Assembly: GCA_965279525.1 (NCBI GenBank)
Contig: CBDIIB010000005.1
Coordinates: 1,056,001-1,120,000 of the forward strand
Length of the DNA: 64,000 nucleotides
From: Tagaea sp.
Lineage (GTDB): Bacteria > Pseudomonadota > Alphaproteobacteria > CACIAM-22H2
Direction: 5' to 3'
The position numbers and the translations under genes are program-made. This document shows, in pieces, positions 2-6,527 of this stretch. The notes under the pieces were generated by a model. The model was not told the origin of the DNA and did not search any database. It saw only the letters and a list, made by a program, of their open reading frames with translations. Within the stretch, counting starts at the first letter, position 1, and each line of letters starts with the position of its first letter.

Positions 2-400
2 ATGAACGCGATGTGCGCGGCCGAGGGCGTGGGGCTCATCCCCTATTCGCCGCTGGCGCGCGGTTTCCTTGCCGGCAACCGGGTGCGTGGCGGCGGCGGC
101 GAGACCGAGCGTTCGAAGAACGACGCGGGTGCGAAGCCCGACGCGTGGCGCGACTGCGACTGGAAGATCGTCGACGAGCTCAAGGCCATCGCCGCTTCGC
201 GCGGCGTCAAGCCCACGCAGGTCGCCTTCCTGTGGCTGTGGTCGAAATCCTATATGGCGGCCCCGATCATGGGGGCGACGAAGCTCGACCAGCTCGACGA
301 GGCGGCGGCGGCGGCCGACATGCCGGCCCTGACCGCGGAGGAAGTTTCGCGGCTCGAAGCGCCCTACCAGTGGCGCCCACATCCGGGCTGGAACAGCTGA
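2..400 (+). CDS. Aldo/keto reductase, C-terminal part (gene runs off the window start)
   Basis: Motifs PYSPLARGFL, VAFLWL, PIMGATK..QL are typical of the AKR C-terminal half; TGA stop at 398-400. Confidence 0.9.
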   Translation: MNAMCAAEGVGLIPYSPLARGFLAGNRVRGGGGETERSKNDAGAKPDAWRDCDWKIVDELKAIAASRGVKPTQVAFLWLWSKSYMAAPIMGATKLDQLDEAAAAADMPALTAEEVSRLEAPYQWRPHPGWNS

Positions 401-420
401 CGCGTCCTGCGGATTCGTCG
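359..420 (+). repeat. Direct repeat copy A (3' end of AKR gene plus 20 nt downstream)
   Basis: Aligns ungapped to 1144-1205 (offset 785) at 53/62 nt by hand count, with an exact 33-nt core TGGCGCCCACATCCGGGCTGGAACAGCTGACGC (371-403 = 1156-1188). Confidence 0.95.
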
Positions 421-422
421 AG

Positions 423-1142
423 ATGGCAGCAATCACGCTCTATTCCGGTCCCTTGAGCATGTTCGGCGCGAAGGTGCAGATCGCCGCGCTGGAGAAGGGC
501 CTCGCCGTCGATCTGGTGATGGTGCCCTTCGAGATGACGCGGCTGTACGAGCCCAAGCATCCGGATGTGCTGCGCATCAATCCGAAACGCCAGGTGCCGG
601 TGTTGATCCACGGCGCGCTGGAATTGTACGACTCGACGCAGATCTTCGAATATCTGGAAGACCTGACGCCCGACCCGCCGCTCTGGCCGCGCGAGATTGC
701 TGCCCGCGCCCGCGCCCGCCTGCTGGAGCATGAATCCGACGAAGTGTATTTCCCGCCGATCGTCCGCCTGATGGGCCTGCAGCAGACGCCCGACGATCCC
801 GCCGCCATCGCCGCCCGCGCGGCGGTGGCGACCTTCTACGCGAAACTGGAAGCGGCGCTGGCCGACGGCCGCGACTGGCTGGCCGGCGAGACCTACAGCT
901 TCGCCGACATCGCGTTTTTCATGGCGCAGATTTTCGGCGCCCGCATGGGCGCGCCGATGGCCGAAACAGGTGCCGAGCAGACGCCGCGCCTGCTGGCCTG
1001 GCGCGCACGCATGATGCGGCGCGAGGCCGTGCGGCAGGTGGCCGGTGCGATGGCGCGCTGGCTGCGCGGCATCGGCCGGACGCTGCCGCCGTTCATGGAC
1101 GAACTGGCGGCAACCGGGCGCGGGGTCGGGGACCGGCGCTGA
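423..1142 (+). CDS. Glutathione S-transferase family protein
   Basis: N-terminal LYSGPLSMFGAKV, INPKRQVPVL, LYDSTQIFEYLED; C-terminal WLAGETYSFADIA. Confidence 0.92.
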   Translation: MAAITLYSGPLSMFGAKVQIAALEKGLAVDLVMVPFEMTRLYEPKHPDVLRINPKRQVPVLIHGALELYDSTQIFEYLEDLTPDPPLWPREIAARARARLLEHESDEVYFPPIVRLMGLQQTPDDPAAIAARAAVATFYAKLEAALADGRDWLAGETYSFADIAFFMAQIFGARMGAPMAETGAEQTPRLLAWRARMMRREAVRQVAGAMARWLRGIGRTLPPFMDELAATGRGVGDRR

Positions 1143-1143
1143 C

Positions 1144-1205
1144 GCACCCGACCGTTGGCGCCCACATCCGGGCTGGAACAGCTGACGCTTCTCGCGGTAT
1201 CGTCG
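1144..1205 (+). repeat. Direct repeat copy B: orphan copy of the AKR 3' end (reads APDRWRPHPGWNS*)
   Basis: Matches 359-420; begins 1 nt after the GST stop codon. Confidence 0.95.
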
Positions 1206-1235
1206 CCGCCAAGATTCCGTTCTGGGGAGGAACGC

Positions 1236-2804
1236 ATGTTCGCACGCATCATCGCAACGGCGGCAATCGCCGCCGTGGCCTTCGTTTCCGTTTCGGCGGC
1301 ACAAGAACAGCCGCGCCGCGGGGGCGAATTCATCTTCGCGGTCGGCGGCGAGCCGGACACGACCGACTGCCATGCGGCGACGAACTTCGCGGTCGTCCAC
1401 CACCTGGCGCCGCACTATTCGACGCTGGTGAAATTCAACCCGCCGAAATATCCCGAGATCGTCGGCGACGTGGCCAAGGAATGGACCGTCTCGCCCGACG
1501 GCAAGACCTATACGTTCAAGCTCGTCCAGCCGATCAAGTTCCATGACGGCTCGGCGCTGACCTCGGCCGACGTCAAGGCGAGCTTCGATCGCATCAAGAC
1601 GCCGGTCACCGGTGCGCGCTCGGCGCGGCGCGACCATTTCGCCGACGTGGCTTCGGTCGAAGCCCCGGCACCCGACACGGTGGTGTTCAGGCTCAACAAT
1701 CCGAACCCGGCGTTCATGACCTACCTCGCCGCGCCCTTCAACTGCATCTACTCGGCAGCGAAGCTGGCGCAGGACCCGCGCTATCCCGAGAAGCAGGTGA
1801 TGGGCTCGGGCCCGTTCGTGTTCGGCGAGCGCGTTCCCGGCTCGCACTGGGCCGGCAAGCGCTTCGACGGCTATTTCCGTGCCGGATTGCCGCATCTCGA
1901 TGGCTTCCGCGCCACGACGATGAGCGGTGCGGCCATGCTCAACGCCGTGCAGGGCGGCCAGGTGATGGCCGAGTTCCGCGGCATCAGCCCGGCCGAGAAG
2001 GCGCGCGTCGCCGGCCCCAAGGTGACCTTCCAGGAAGCGCCGTGGCTGTCGGGCCTGATCCTGTCGTTCAACATCGAGCAGAAGCCGTTCGACGACGTGC
2101 GCGTGCGCCGGGCGCTGAGCCTCGCGCTCGACCGGTTCGGCTCGGCCCCGTCGCTGGCACGCGTGTCGCAGGTGATGTCGACCGGCTCGCTGCTGCGCCC
2201 GGGCTATGCCTATGCGCCGACCGAAGCCGAGCTGGCGACATATCCCGGCATGGGCCGCGACATGGCGCGCAACCGGGCCGAGGCGCGCAAGCTGCTTGCC
2301 GAGGCGGGCCAGTCGAACCTCAAATTCGAGATGATCTCGATGTCGCTGCCGCCCTTCCCGACCGTCGGCGTGTGGCTGATCGACCAATGGCGCCAGATCG
2401 GCGTGACTGTCGAGCAGCGCCAGGCCGAGCGTGCCACCTATTTCGGCGCGCGCACGTCGGGGGCGTTCCAGGTGATGCTCGATTTCACGACCGAGTTCGC
2501 CGACGAGCCGAACTTCCAGCTGCGCCGCTTCATCTCGTTCGACCGCGTGCCGGGATTCAACGTCAGCCGCCATCTCGACCGGCGCCTCGACGAGATCTTC
2601 GACCGGCAGGAGCGCGAGACCGACTTCAACAAGCGCAAGGCGCTGGTGCGCGACTTCCAGATCCAGCTGATGGACATGGCCTACACGGTGCCGCTGTTCT
2701 GGTTCACGCGCATCATCCCGCTCGCGTCCAACGTGCGCGGCTGGGACATCACGCCCTCGCACCTGCTCGGCCAGGACCTCGCGGGCGTGTGGCTGGCGCC
2801 CTGA
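1236..2804 (+). CDS. ABC transporter substrate-binding protein, family 5 (DppA/OppA-like)
   Basis: Signal peptide MFARIIATAAIAAVAF; WTVSPDGKTYTFKL, KFHDGS, GSGPF, PFDDVRVRRAL; GGAGG RBS upstream of ATG 1236. No permease or ATPase genes adjacent. Confidence 0.92.
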   Translation: MFARIIATAAIAAVAFVSVSAAQEQPRRGGEFIFAVGGEPDTTDCHAATNFAVVHHLAPHYSTLVKFNPPKYPEIVGDVAKEWTVSPDGKTYTFKLVQPIKFHDGSALTSADVKASFDRIKTPVTGARSARRDHFADVASVEAPAPDTVVFRLNNPNPAFMTYLAAPFNCIYSAAKLAQDPRYPEKQVMGSGPFVFGERVPGSHWAGKRFDGYFRAGLPHLDGFRATTMSGAAMLNAVQGGQVMAEFRGISPAEKARVAGPKVTFQEAPWLSGLILSFNIEQKPFDDVRVRRALSLALDRFGSAPSLARVSQVMSTGSLLRPGYAYAPTEAELATYPGMGRDMARNRAEARKLLAEAGQSNLKFEMISMSLPPFPTVGVWLIDQWRQIGVTVEQRQAERATYFGARTSGAFQVMLDFTTEFADEPNFQLRRFISFDRVPGFNVSRHLDRRLDEIFDRQERETDFNKRKALVRDFQIQLMDMAYTVPLFWFTRIIPLASNVRGWDITPSHLLGQDLAGVWLAP

Positions 2805-2806
2805 CG

Positions 2807-2851
2807 CCTCACCCTAGCCCTCTCCCCTTGCGGGAGAGGGCTAGGGTGAGG
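2807..2851. repeat. Perfect 20-bp inverted repeat (REP-like intergenic palindrome / possible bidirectional terminator)
   Basis: CCTCACCCTAGCCCTCTCCC-CTTGC-GGGAGAGGGCTAGGGTGAGG between convergent genes. Confidence 0.9.
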
Positions 2852-2882
2852 GGATCGCCATCTTCGATCCCGCCACGGTCGG
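2841..2882 (-). pseudogene. Displaced 3' fragment of the enolase-superfamily gene (PTVAGSKMAIPSP*)
   Basis: Minus-strand codons 2882-2853 give PTVAGSKMAI versus LTVAGSVAAI at 5453-5424: 7/10 aa and 20/30 nt identical, with five synonymous third-position differences. Confidence 0.65.
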
Positions 2883-2889
2883 CCCCTAT

Positions 2890-5298
2890 TCAGTCGAGGC
2901 GAATCATTTCCACTGCTTTCCCCAGACGTTCAGCCGTTTTGTCAAGGTTGGCTAGAATGCCACCGACGTCTTTTGAGGCTTCAAGATAAATTGTTTTGTT
3001 CACGTACTTGGTTCCAGGTCCAATTGCCCACCCATCATTTTCAAGTATCCCCACCGCGGATGCCAGTCGATCTGGCCACGTTTTCTCGACTTTTGACCAA
3101 TCTGCCTCGGGATTTAATTGATTGTGGAACGTCAGAAGTACCGAGTTACTTTTTATGCTCCCCTTCAGAGCACAGAGCCGCCCCGGTCTTCCAATACGAG
3201 TGAAAGTTGCACCATCGTCGCTTGATAGATAGCTATTGTCGAATGCACGAGCAAATAGCTCTTCGGCGCAAATATCCGGGGTTATTGAAGTGAGCTTTCC
3301 TCCCAATGCGCGGTCGATTTGCGAGAGGATTGCCCCAAAAGTCCGGACAGTTATTCTAAGCTGTGATTCTGGATTGGTAGAGCTTCGAATCAACCAACGA
3401 AGACGCGCAGCTGCAGATTTCCATTTGACCTTTGGATCTTGCCTGACACCGCTAGAAATCAAACCCAACCAATCTAAAGACTTGCTTCCGCCACTTGGCG
3501 GGGGCTTACCAGTCGCGCAAAAGTACGCCGTCATTCCAATTCCATATGAGTCAACAAGTGCTGATCTTGCTGCTTCTGCGTTTCCATCAGGAAGCTGCTC
3601 GGGTGCGTAATATGCCGCCTCGTCAGTACTACCGGAAATGCTCTCGCCTTGGGCATTCGAATGCCAAGACATGTCATAGTTCAATAACGTAACACTATGC
3701 CGGGAACCTCCTTCGAATGCTTCACATGCTTCTTCATCCCAATAAAATCTGGGAACCATAATGTTTGAAGGTCTCACATCTCTATGCAACACGCTTTCAG
3801 GCAGCGCGTGGGAGTTCTCAATATGATCGCATACGTTGCAGAGAACTTTTATGCCGTCGAGCCAAAAGTCAAATTTACTATCCAGCGCGATTTGCGCCAA
3901 ATTGGCTCCGTCGACAAACTTCATAATCATGCATGATGGAATCTCAACTGCATCCACTATTTCCGCCGTACCGGGGACTTTAGCTTTTGTTAGATAACGT
4001 AGAGATTGTACACCCCGCCGGAAGCTCTCAAGTTGAGGGCCTTTTTCCAAATTCTCGATCTTAATGATCTTTAGTGCGTAGTCATTGCTCTCCGAATCCG
4101 AGATTCGCCAGATTGAAGAGAAGGGGTTGCTGGATATCTTTTCCCTAACCACATATCCAAGAAATACGTTCGATGGAGCCTCTGTTGTGACATGCCAAGA
4201 CATATAAACCGCTCTAGAGTACTTCTTTAGAAATTCTTTATACTCGGCTGAATCAGTATTTCCAGAATTGCGGGCCAATATATCTCTGGCGTATCCCGCA
4301 AGTTCACCTCGAAGTTGGTCGTCATTGTCTAGTTCAATAAGTTCTTTCGGCGTGCGGATCTTTGTGCTTCTAGCGACGGACCCTACAACTGCTGGCGCGG
4401 CAGAATCGCGAGATACAAAGTTTTTGAGACTTTCGAGAATCTCAACTATTGCCGTAGTGTGATCAATTGTGTCGTCTGAAGCTCTGGTTGGCTGATAATT
4501 TATAACCTGAAGCTGTGTTTTTGCCGCCCATTTAGCGGTAGTCCCATCATTCCTGCTCGTAATCCAAAAATGTTGGTCGAGATCAACATGACTTCTTGTC
4601 ATTTCCTCAAGGAAGCCACCAACCGCTAAGTCGTCGGCTGAAATCCCGAGAAAAACAATGGTCAAATCTTTGAGAATGTAGTCGATAAATTGCCGGTACT
4701 GGCTATTTGAAAGGAGATGACTCAAATCACCTTTAGTAAACACCCATGAGTCAGCGTTTTCATGAACGCCATGGAGATTTGCGATGAACGGCTTTCTCTG
4801 AGAAACCCGATGAATATACGGACCCGCATCTTTACCGGAAAACTCCATCGAATCTTCGTGCGAACGAATAAGGCGATGGGAACGACGGGCCATTCCATCG
4901 ATATTCAAAGTCAGAACACTCTTAACGCCGTCAAGCTTCCAAAGCTCTTCATACACTCTAGGTGGATCAACACGTTCGGCCTTCTCAAACACCTCTCGAA
5001 TCGCCGATCGATATTTTGCAGCCCCGAGAACATCCCGCAATGTCTCGAAGGAATCCCAAAGAGACGCATCCGATCCAAGACGCTCTAATCTGTCTTCAAT
5101 CTCATCTACTTTTGACGCTTCAGCAGTCAACAATTCTTGCTTAGCTTCATCGGCTAAAATGTCACGAAGTTCTGACCATGAAGGCAAGCCTGCTGGCTGG
5201 CTAATCCCCGCGCCAATCCAAAACGCAATATCCTTTGTCCGCTCTGCGTACCTGCGGCCCAAACGAAGAAAGCTACCTTGATTTGGATTGAAAAGCAT
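2890..5298 (-). CDS. SIR2-like domain fused to a Ser/Thr protein kinase-like domain (802 aa); putative anti-phage defence protein
   Basis: SIR2-type motifs FWIGAGISQPAGLPSW, TLNID, NLHG, IVFLGISADD; kinase motifs YALK, HRDVRPSNI, YYAPEQ, DSYGIG; markedly AT-rich relative to flanks. Confidence 0.85.
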   Translation of the reverse strand: MLFNPNQGSFLRLGRRYAERTKDIAFWIGAGISQPAGLPSWSELRDILADEAKQELLTAEASKVDEIEDRLERLGSDASLWDSFETLRDVLGAAKYRSAIREVFEKAERVDPPRVYEELWKLDGVKSVLTLNIDGMARRSHRLIRSHEDSMEFSGKDAGPYIHRVSQRKPFIANLHGVHENADSWVFTKGDLSHLLSNSQYRQFIDYILKDLTIVFLGISADDLAVGGFLEEMTRSHVDLDQHFWITSRNDGTTAKWAAKTQLQVINYQPTRASDDTIDHTTAIVEILESLKNFVSRDSAAPAVVGSVARSTKIRTPKELIELDNDDQLRGELAGYARDILARNSGNTDSAEYKEFLKKYSRAVYMSWHVTTEAPSNVFLGYVVREKISSNPFSSIWRISDSESNDYALKIIKIENLEKGPQLESFRRGVQSLRYLTKAKVPGTAEIVDAVEIPSCMIMKFVDGANLAQIALDSKFDFWLDGIKVLCNVCDHIENSHALPESVLHRDVRPSNIMVPRFYWDEEACEAFEGGSRHSVTLLNYDMSWHSNAQGESISGSTDEAAYYAPEQLPDGNAEAARSALVDSYGIGMTAYFCATGKPPPSGGSKSLDWLGLISSGVRQDPKVKWKSAAARLRWLIRSSTNPESQLRITVRTFGAILSQIDRALGGKLTSITPDICAEELFARAFDNSYLSSDDGATFTRIGRPGRLCALKGSIKSNSVLLTFHNQLNPEADWSKVEKTWPDRLASAVGILENDGWAIGPGTKYVNKTIYLEASKDVGGILANLDKTAERLGKAVEMIRLD

Positions 5299-5344
5299 TC
5301 CAGCACCCTTGAGATTTAATATTTTCTGGTTGTGTATTTTTTCA

Positions 5345-5380
5345 ATTATAATTTAGTATGCATATCTCGCCGAATGTCAA
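5345..5380 (-). promoter_or_regulatory. Putative sigma70-type promoter region of the SIR2-kinase gene
   Basis: Minus strand has TTGACA (5380-5375), then TACTAA at a 16-nt spacer, TAAATT at 19 nt and TATAAT at 24 nt, in an AT-rich leader; the exact pairing is ambiguous. Confidence 0.45.
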
Positions 5381-5417
5381 ATATTGGTCGACGATTCAAT
5401 TTGGACTTGTGCGGGCA

Positions 5418-6527
5418 CTACTCAATTGCCGCCACCGAACCCGCGACCGTCAGCTTCTCGACCGACGGCCAGTCCCATTCGATGCCGAGGCCCGGCGTGG
5501 TCGCCGGTGCCACGTGGCCGTCGGCGACGTGCACGGGGCTGGGGGCGACGGCGTCGAGCTGCGGGATGTATTCGAGCCAGGCCGAGTTGGGCACGGCGCA
5601 CACGAGTGCGAGGTGCAGCTCCATCAGGAAGTGCGGGGCGACGGCCACGTTGCAGCACTCGGCCATGTGCGCGACCTTCAGCCACGGCGTGATGCCGCCG
5701 ATGCGCGCCACGTCCACCTGAACGATGCCGCAGGCGTTGCGCTTCAGGTAGTCCGCGAACTGGCCGGGCGAATAGAGCGACTCGCCCACCGCGATCGGGA
5801 TCTGCGTGCCGGCCTGCAGGCGCACGTGGCCGTCCACGTCGTCGGCGGGCAGCGGCTCCTCGAACCAGTCGAGATCGAGATCGGCCCACAGCAGGGCGCG
5901 GCGCAGCGCTTCGGCCGCCGTGAAGCGCTGGTTGGCATCGACCATCAGGCAGAAGCCGGGCCCCACGGCCGCGCGCACGGCCGCAAGGCGCCTGCGGTCT
6001 TCGGCACCCGAAGGCTTGCCGACCTTGAGCTTGGCGCCCGCGAAGCCCTGTTCGCGCGCCTTCAGCGTCTCGTCGACGAGCTGTTCGGGGGGATGGTGCA
6101 GCCAGCCACCCTCGGTCGTGTAGACCGGGATGCGCGTCTTGGCCCCGCCGGCGGCCAAGTGCAGCGGCAGCTTCGCGCGCCGGCAGCGCAGGTCCCACAA
6201 GGCCGTGTCGATCGCCGCCATCGCCAGCGACGTGATGGCGCCCACCGTGGTCGCGTGCGTGTGGAAGAGCATGCCGTTCCAGATGCCCTCGATGGCGTCC
6301 GCGTCCTTGCCCAGCAGATACGGCCCCAGACAGTCGCGCAGCATCGCCATCACGGCCGAGCCGCCCGTGCCGATCGTGTAGCTGTAGCCCGTGCCCACGG
6401 CGCCGTCGGCGTCCCAGATCCGCACCATCGGCGTTTCCTGGCGCACGAAGGATTGGATGGCGTCTGTCCTTACGACCGGAGGTACGAGGTCGACCTGGCG
6501 GATTTCGATCCGGACGATGCGCGACAT
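5418..6527 (-). CDS. Mandelate racemase/muconate lactonizing enzyme family (enolase superfamily), likely sugar-acid dehydratase
   Basis: AAIDTALWDL, KLKVG, MVDANQ, WFEEP, GESLY, DVARIGGIT, PGLGI. Confidence 0.92.
   Translation of the reverse strand: MSRIVRIEIRQVDLVPPVVRTDAIQSFVRQETPMVRIWDADGAVGTGYSYTIGTGGSAVMAMLRDCLGPYLLGKDADAIEGIWNGMLFHTHATTVGAITSLAMAAIDTALWDLRCRRAKLPLHLAAGGAKTRIPVYTTEGGWLHHPPEQLVDETLKAREQGFAGAKLKVGKPSGAEDRRRLAAVRAAVGPGFCLMVDANQRFTAAEALRRALLWADLDLDWFEEPLPADDVDGHVRLQAGTQIPIAVGESLYSPGQFADYLKRNACGIVQVDVARIGGITPWLKVAHMAECCNVAVAPHFLMELHLALVCAVPNSAWLEYIPQLDAVAPSPVHVADGHVAPATTPGLGIEWDWPSVEKLTVAGSVAAIE

Follow-up and report, generated by a model that had tools for sequence, protein, structure and literature searches.

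A SIR2-kinase gene inserted between two versions of a host gene end in Tagaea sp., with a proposed origin by recombination

Introduction

The route by which solo low-GC genes, common as they are, arrive without a mobility gene is usually unexplained. The stretch of DNA analysed here (64,000 nt of Tagaea sp. contig CBDIIB010000005.1, positions 1,056,001 to 1,120,000; henceforth the window) presents this question in a tractable form. A gene encoding a SIR2-kinase protein (the cargo) stands directly behind a gene of the MR/MLE (enolase-superfamily) group (the target), and the 3' end of the target can be read on both sides of it, in two different spellings. A duplicated and re-spelled gene tail of this kind constitutes a readable scar, by which the point of insertion can be located and the host gene is seen to have been kept whole. 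The question is what placed the cargo there. Throughout the text, G000 designates the genome under study, the other G numbers (G007, G010-G013, G016 and G019) its congeners, and L numbers the loci fetched for comparison.

Results

The SIR2-kinase gene is an insertion at the 3' end of an MR/MLE gene

The comparison with congeners establishes that the SIR2-kinase gene is a real insertion at the 3' end of the target gene, as the preliminary description of this DNA had proposed. The site comprises the following features:

5418..6527, minus strand: target gene, MR/MLE (enolase-superfamily) dehydratase-like protein of 369 aa, conserved in the genus
5418..5453, minus strand: in-use 3' end of the target, LTVAGSVAAIE*
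5299..5417, minus strand: AT-rich cargo leader, with a single weak sigma70-like match (9/12, where chance alone would give 0.3)
2890..5298, minus strand: cargo gene, 802-aa protein with SIR2_2, protein-kinase-fold and C-terminal alpha/beta domains, a candidate anti-phage NADase
2841..2882, minus strand: orphan (displaced native) 3' end, PTVAGSKMAIPSP*, starting 7 nt after the cargo stop
2808..2850, no strand: palindromic hairpin with a 19-bp stem, from a genome-wide repeat family, located likewise behind the target gene in G019 and G011
1236..2804, plus strand: family-5 solute-binding protein (SBP) gene, the convergent neighbour, tail-to-tail with the target in empty alleles

Eight congeners present the target gene tail-to-tail with the SBP gene. 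Seven of them are empty, with a gap of -9 to 112 nt between both genes, and the eighth (G010) carries a different insert of 1,122 nt. The SIR2-kinase cargo itself was found in none of 20 congener genomes, several of them incomplete. Positions 2818-2859 of the window match the G019 empty allele exactly over 42 nt, of which 38 nt occur only once in G000. The orphan is hence the displaced native end of the target gene, in agreement with the downstream displacement that had been postulated. The empty allele predicted on that basis was also recovered, with G019 ending in ..PGSVTAIPSP* straight into the same hairpin. The corresponding end in G011 reads ..AGSVTAVPSP*, and G012 (..AGSKATLG*) and G013 (..PGSKTTLG*) present the GSK type, sharing their K codon with the orphan. 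The target had been described as an enolase; its domain matches (PF13378, PF02746) assign it instead to the MR/MLE proteins of the enolase superfamily, with L-talarate/galactarate dehydratase as the best NCBIfam match, below cut-off.

The coordinates and letters of the two ends stand as first reported, and a recount over their first ten codons returned the same figures, with 7/10 amino acids and 20/30 nt identical and five synonymous codon changes. The longest exact run common to both copies spans 5 nt (GCGGG). The first six codons of the in-use end differ from the closest congener, G012, at 1/18 nt. Beyond the GS residues, the in-use tail has no counterpart in any of the eight congeners, and this part of the protein is hypervariable, differing in every one of them. 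The final residues of the orphan (PSP*) correspond to the first arm of a repeated palindrome with 28 motif matches in G000. Next to them, the GGA..ATC stretch (within 2851-2871) forms a perfect inverted repeat of 7 bp that directly adjoins the larger hairpin, so that one of the synonymous changes in the orphan may reflect hairpin perfection.

Public-run contigs span both junctions with 0 differences. These contigs possibly derive from the window's own source samples and are therefore not independent support, yet the location of the junctions inside them rules out a binning or scaffolding join. A groundwater contig from another study joins position 2798 to 5428, that is, the site without the insert. 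A metagenome scan for the junction pattern returned one short contig, corresponding to a G007-type allele, and no new cargos. The insert between the two copies measures 2,571 nt and holds a single open reading frame (ORF), with matches only to SIR2_2 and kinase domains. The absence of an integrase noted earlier for this unit was borne out: no recombinase lies within the insert, and in a genome-wide search confined to tyrosine recombinases the nearest match (PF00589) is located about 117 kb away. The G010 insert (L144:5343-6464) is of low GC (0.52), with one 296-codon frame and 12 nt that may be copied from the SBP gene end (p 0.05).

The resemblance between both ends could in principle be a chance likeness of the cargo trailer to a gene end, and the preliminary description had called for a shuffling test. 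Shuffles of the 85-nt gap reached the observed BLOSUM score in 10 of 20,000 cases (p 0.0005), supporting the match locally; under wide nulls the p-value rises to 0.02-0.07. Shuffling the whole insert reached the score in 10 of 500 cases (p 0.02), a codon-aware test using tails from other loci gave p ~0.07, 2/40 random tails matched as well, and in a genome-wide nucleotide scan the match falls below noise, as had been anticipated for nucleotide repeat searches. Across the genome, 17 of 8.69 million windows reached 7/10 identity. Part of the orphan being a generic repeat also speaks for chance. Against it stand the 42-nt exact identity to an empty allele, located at the orthologous position, and the K codon matching that of G012 and G013. 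Taken alone, the MR tail match is modest; it is the comparison with relatives that makes the displacement solid, and with chance thus largely refuted by the empty alleles we assign it a negligible probability.

A second unit in the window has chimeric gene ends

The same window harbors a second gene inserted behind a duplicated gene end, involving an aldo-keto reductase (AKR) gene and a glutathione S-transferase (GST) gene:

356..421, plus strand: in-use 3' end of the AKR gene, with an exact core at 371-403 and diverged homologous flanks
423..1142, plus strand: GST gene, the second cargo, inserted behind the AKR gene
1141..1206, plus strand: orphan copy of the AKR end, with an exact core at 1156-1188 and a right flank that matches the empty allele

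No GST gene was present at the AKR position in any of the nine congener regions fetched, and a run contig joins position 404 to 1190, that is, the AKR site without GST. The two AKR copies share a 33-nt exact core (371-403 and 1156-1188), and their flanks behave reciprocally. The empty allele of G012 shows 0/15 differences to the left flank of the in-use copy and 1/18 to the right flank of the orphan. The left flank of the orphan (5/15 differences) and the right flank of the in-use copy (6/18) are diverged from G012 yet homologous to it (p 0.002 and 0.0005, respectively). Such a reciprocal pattern is what would be expected if a homeologous donor segment had recombined through a single crossover. 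Chimeric copies of this type discriminate between a single crossover with the DNA of a relative and a target duplication.

Duplicated gene ends recur in the genome and at homologue loci

A scan of 3,350 G000 genes for downstream duplicates of their own 3' ends, with a score threshold of >=16, returned three matches (AKR/GST, serA and a 43-nt case) versus 0 in the null, and all three have empty congeners. At serA (G000:C2:324130-326870), a 389-nt repeat with 90% identity surrounds two low-GC genes encoding unknown proteins of 368 and 199 codons. The repeat unit encompasses the serA 3' end, a palindrome and a small antidote-like ORF, the two copies of which differ in their N-termini; no such long tail repeat was observed in 20 congener regions, one of them truncated. 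The serA copies show five orphan-side changes, all of them transitions, and three in-use changes, which are synonymous. In the third case (G000:C5:805636-812258, L190), a 43-nt gene-end repeat brackets a 6.5-kb block within what is probably a polysaccharide cluster. G016 and G013 are empty at this position, and G013 has the block elsewhere, about 30 kb away, at 82%.

Among ten small low-GC islets in G000, nine of which were tested, a credible tail copy was detected only at serA and at the SIR2-kinase gene. Three solo low-GC genes lying between host genes (C2:63116-63796, C5:574019-574789 and C5:1453121-1454485) showed no credible duplicated end; a 13-nt match at C2:63 kb was rejected as a tail copy since it overlaps a repeat element. 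The serA-hisZ (L121-L140; 183-4,912 nt) and thrC-dcp (L170-L184; 4-7,302 nt) intervals are hotspots of variable content throughout their respective genera, mostly without detectable tail duplications.

Homologues of the SIR2-kinase gene were examined at 79 genome loci of other lineages, of which 64 had usable flanks and 15 were left out for short flanks. A solo arrangement with a repeated tail was identified at two loci, L054 and L068, located behind genes for an Xre-type antitoxin (118 nt, 90%) and an ABC ATPase (84 nt, 96%), respectively. Larger nested units with a tail repeat were found at L112 (M3 peptidase gene) and L076 (glnS); L112 is the weaker case, with insertion sequence-like repeats near the cargo. 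In the top relatives, the genes on either side of the L068 insert do not lie next to each other, so this locus provides no clean empty allele. The remaining usable loci lacked such a tail repeat, several of them presenting other repeats, and no further credible tail duplication emerged from relatives of the L112 (15 congeners) and L068 (five) genomes. At L076:4784-11948, the glnS end appears again after an MNT-HEPN pair, followed by the SIR2-kinase gene, a transposase-like gene and then a nucleotidyltransferase gene repeat.

Pooled over seven repeats, the differences between copies are rich in synonymous changes (27/59 versus about 25% expected, p 4e-4; 13/20 in G000), a count that leaves out the AKR core, with its 0 differences. 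This excess suggests that both copies may once have been coding.

The cargo is a candidate anti-phage effector

The GC content of the cargo gene is 0.47, against about 0.68 in the flanks, and ranges from 0.43 to 0.49 across the insert. Pfam, PADLOC and NCBIfam searches identified only SIR2 and kinase domains in its product, as partial-domain matches, with the SIR2 domain (PF13289) above cut-off and no whole-protein model in PADLOC or NCBIfam. In the predicted structure (predicted local distance difference test, pLDDT, 87), the SIR2 domain superimposes on two anti-phage NADase effectors, on ThsA (PDB 7uxt; Z 22.9, root-mean-square deviation, rmsd, 2.7 over 255 residues) and on KomC (9v0g, 8zsf; Z 21.5, rmsd 3.4 over 258 residues), and the SIR2 motifs GAGxS, LNxD and LHG are conserved. 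The predicted kinase domain adopts a PknB-like fold (Z 24.3), and the C-terminal alpha/beta domain had no match in the ESM Atlas.

The kinase residues were placed through a HMMER alignment to PknB-like kinases. The cargo keeps the beta3 (VAIK) lysine, Lys410, and the HRDxxPxN motif. The alphaC Glu position is occupied by Gly or Ser in 36/36 aligned proteins (Gly in the cargo, within FRRG at residues 426-429), and the DFG Asp position by Asn in 27/36, the cargo included (NYD, 540-542), with DFD in distant homologues. Lacking two canonical residues, this kinase-like domain may operate as a sensor pseudokinase, and its clade is a candidate pseudokinase clade.

Of 7,998 proteins scored, at least 142 belong to the cargo family at E<=1e-20, with a best identity of 49%, and the family's matches cover 212 genome stretches. 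The closest named homologue is encoded at L042 (49%). On the strength of its predicted fold, its low GC and its mobility, the cargo can be put forward as a candidate anti-phage effector, which would deplete NAD+ under the control of its own kinase-like domain. No SIR2-kinase fusion system was found described in the literature searched, a search that most subscription papers lay outside of. The family offers a ready candidate defence system.

Origin of the insertion

We favor, with odds slightly on its side, the explanation that the SIR2-kinase insertion arose when the cell's own recombination machinery joined DNA of a related bacterium to the chromosome through a single crossover. The donor DNA would have carried the cargo beside its own version of the same gene end. 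A single Campbell-type crossover within a short shared stretch, from a circular or end-joined donor piece, would then generate an in-use end that is host on its left and donor on its right, and an orphan that is donor on its left and host on its right. The host gene would stay whole, and no dedicated enzyme would be required. This reciprocal chimera is seen directly at AKR/GST and would extend to the SIR2 site by analogy. The presence in one genome of four different targets, with repeats of 30-389 nt, argues against one site-specific enzyme.

A number of observations weigh against this explanation. The MR-site alleles of the congeners yield, in a hand count, 12 differences to the best relatives for a recombined and 11 for an unrecombined reading, and do not separate them; a chimera reading of the MR copies, based first on G012 and G007, was not supported over the unrecombined one in that comparison. 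The 30 nt of the in-use end match G011 at 26/30 positions. An exact run of 5 nt is too short for RecA, so the event at the SIR2 site must be old or driven by microhomology. No conspecific empty allele was found in the four of 21 sequencing-run rows, from one study that is possibly the source, which covered half the stretch, and no donor allele was found; rows with a small share were left aside as evidence of habitat. The AKR orphan core could owe its conservation to a role as promoter DNA for the gene that follows, and the serA pattern is equally compatible with plain duplication and drift. The synonymous test is biased by case selection, the MR case having been picked by amino-acid identity. 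Lastly, tail duplications are few at SIR2-kinase homologue loci (4/64, two of them tight), and at L042 and L050 the homologues lie in integrase elements with the same 47-49 nt exact tRNA-Gly attachment (att) repeat.

Three other processes have to be weighed. Homology-facilitated illegitimate recombination of a linear donor, anchored in the MR gene and joined illegitimately just upstream of the old stop, would render the in-use tail all donor and the orphan all host. It explains the diverged copies with neither a circle nor a long exact core, fits the closeness of the in-use 30 nt to G011 (4 differences) and is a described process, to which displaced 3' regions have been attributed (PMC5361080 and PMC2884548); G000 also has a ComEC-family match, though so do 10/14 control genomes. 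The diverged-but-homologous left flank of the AKR orphan is not predicted by such a donor, no identity step that would mark an anchor is visible along the MR gene against G012, G019, G011 or G007, and we regard this process as unlikely. We deem it somewhat less probable still that a true target duplication, in repair or template switching, produced identical host-derived copies that later drifted, with a weakly constrained in-use tail and a decaying orphan. This is the interpretation given for "insertion with long target duplication" in PMC2853133; it suits serA as well as L068 and L112, where the repeats are near-identical, and the tail after GS does vary in every congener, with one orphan change perfecting the hairpin. 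A plain duplication is harder to reconcile with 10/30 differences between the MR copies when G000 and G012 diverge by about 6% over the gene (p 6e-6; 0.002 at 12%), with the synonymous excess, and with an AKR orphan core showing 0/33 changes beside 5/15 in its left flank.

The insert could also be the remnant or satellite of an integrase-driven element with an icd-type end, its integrase lost or acting in trans. G000 contains nine tyrosine-recombinase matches above cut-off, two homologues lie in tRNA-Gly integrase elements, and phage 21 and e14 integrate within icd (PMC12803456). The 119-nt leader and 7-nt trailer leave no space for a recombinase remnant, the MR copies share no identical 7-nt core (later drift could have erased one), and four unrelated targets with variable repeat lengths occur in a single genome; this origin appears very improbable. 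The integrase elements at L042 and L050 are a possible reservoir for solo inserts.

The single-crossover and linear-donor explanations both agree with the preliminary description in having the in-use end arrive together with the cargo. This incoming replacement is likely, given the 10/30 differences against a divergence of about 6%; the tail is hypervariable in the genus, however, and the congener alleles do not place the crossover. Tentatively, and with the chances rather against it, the single-crossover explanation can be broadened into a scheme in which small integrase-free cassettes, made of a cargo and a short homeologous gene end, would cycle between related bacteria as excisable circles and re-enter genomes by one host-mediated crossover, the cargo at the SIR2 site being an undescribed single-protein SIR2-pseudokinase anti-phage system spread across phyla. 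If true, such a cycle would provide solo defence genes with a general, enzyme-free way into genomes, and chimeric gene tails would be its trace. Diverged cases are missed by nucleotide repeat finders, and the route may hence be undercounted. The chimeric copies also open insertion with long target duplication to a test of its mechanism, and show this mechanism to be independent of restriction enzymes. The architecture is already in print for restriction-modification (R-M) genes; the mechanism at the SIR2 site is one that we infer.

Comparison with known systems

Phage 21 and e14 supply a replacement icd 3' end. Their integration site in E. coli icd (PMC12803456) had been invoked as the precedent for the SIR2-kinase insertion, and the two situations are alike in that a protein-coding target has its 3' end present twice. 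Both, however, are large elements that bring an integrase of their own and use a fixed att core, and the SIR2-kinase insert has neither. A closer parallel is the integrase-free insertion with long target duplication documented in PMC2853133 (Furuta, Abe and Kobayashi 2010). There, R-M genes of several phyla are found inserted between long target duplications, unaccompanied by any other mobile element. The repeats often include a start or stop codon, the target staying intact, and release and reinfection are stated to be unproven. The cases described here share with that class a small cargo, the lack of any other mobile-element gene, direct repeats of unique host sequence and an empty allele in a relative.

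The correspondence is partial. Empty alleles and inserts below 20 kb without a mobile-element gene characterize both sets, with empty alleles at the species level here and intraspecific in PMC2853133. That class has duplications above 30 bp, a length exceeded at AKR (33 exact), serA (389) and the 43-nt case, whereas the MR repeat spans 30 nt with 20/30 identical; its 67% contrasts with 44/46 to 47/47 among the rows listed in Table 2 of that source. The PMC2853133 cargo is an R-M system, whereas the cargos here are a SIR2-kinase gene (with only SIR2 and kinase matches in Pfam, PADLOC and NCBIfam), a GST gene, unknown genes and a polysaccharide block. The R-M-specific cause proposed there, DNA breakage, cannot be general for these cases, and the chimeric AKR flanks point to two alleles, unlike the duplicated target of that proposal. 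The MR/SIR2 case thus works like this class without strict membership in it. The same architecture was not found described for non-R-M defence genes in the literature searched, to which the supplementary figures of PMC2853133, lying outside that search, may add closer cases.

Displacement by homology-facilitated illegitimate recombination is described in PMC2884548, and PMC5361080 reports C-terminal displacement arrays arising in this manner among Vibrio cholerae type VI secretion system effector-immunity and Rhs loci. As is likely at the MR site, incoming DNA replaces the 3' part of a gene and shifts the old part downstream with no integrase. The part displaced in the arrays is that of a toxin locus with immunity genes, whereas here the cargo bears no relation to its target, a housekeeping or metabolic gene. 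At the protein level, the cargo resembles ThsA and KomC in its SIR2 fold and NAD-binding motifs, and differs from both in that a single gene fuses the SIR2 part to a Hanks-type kinase fold and to an alpha/beta domain at the C-terminus.

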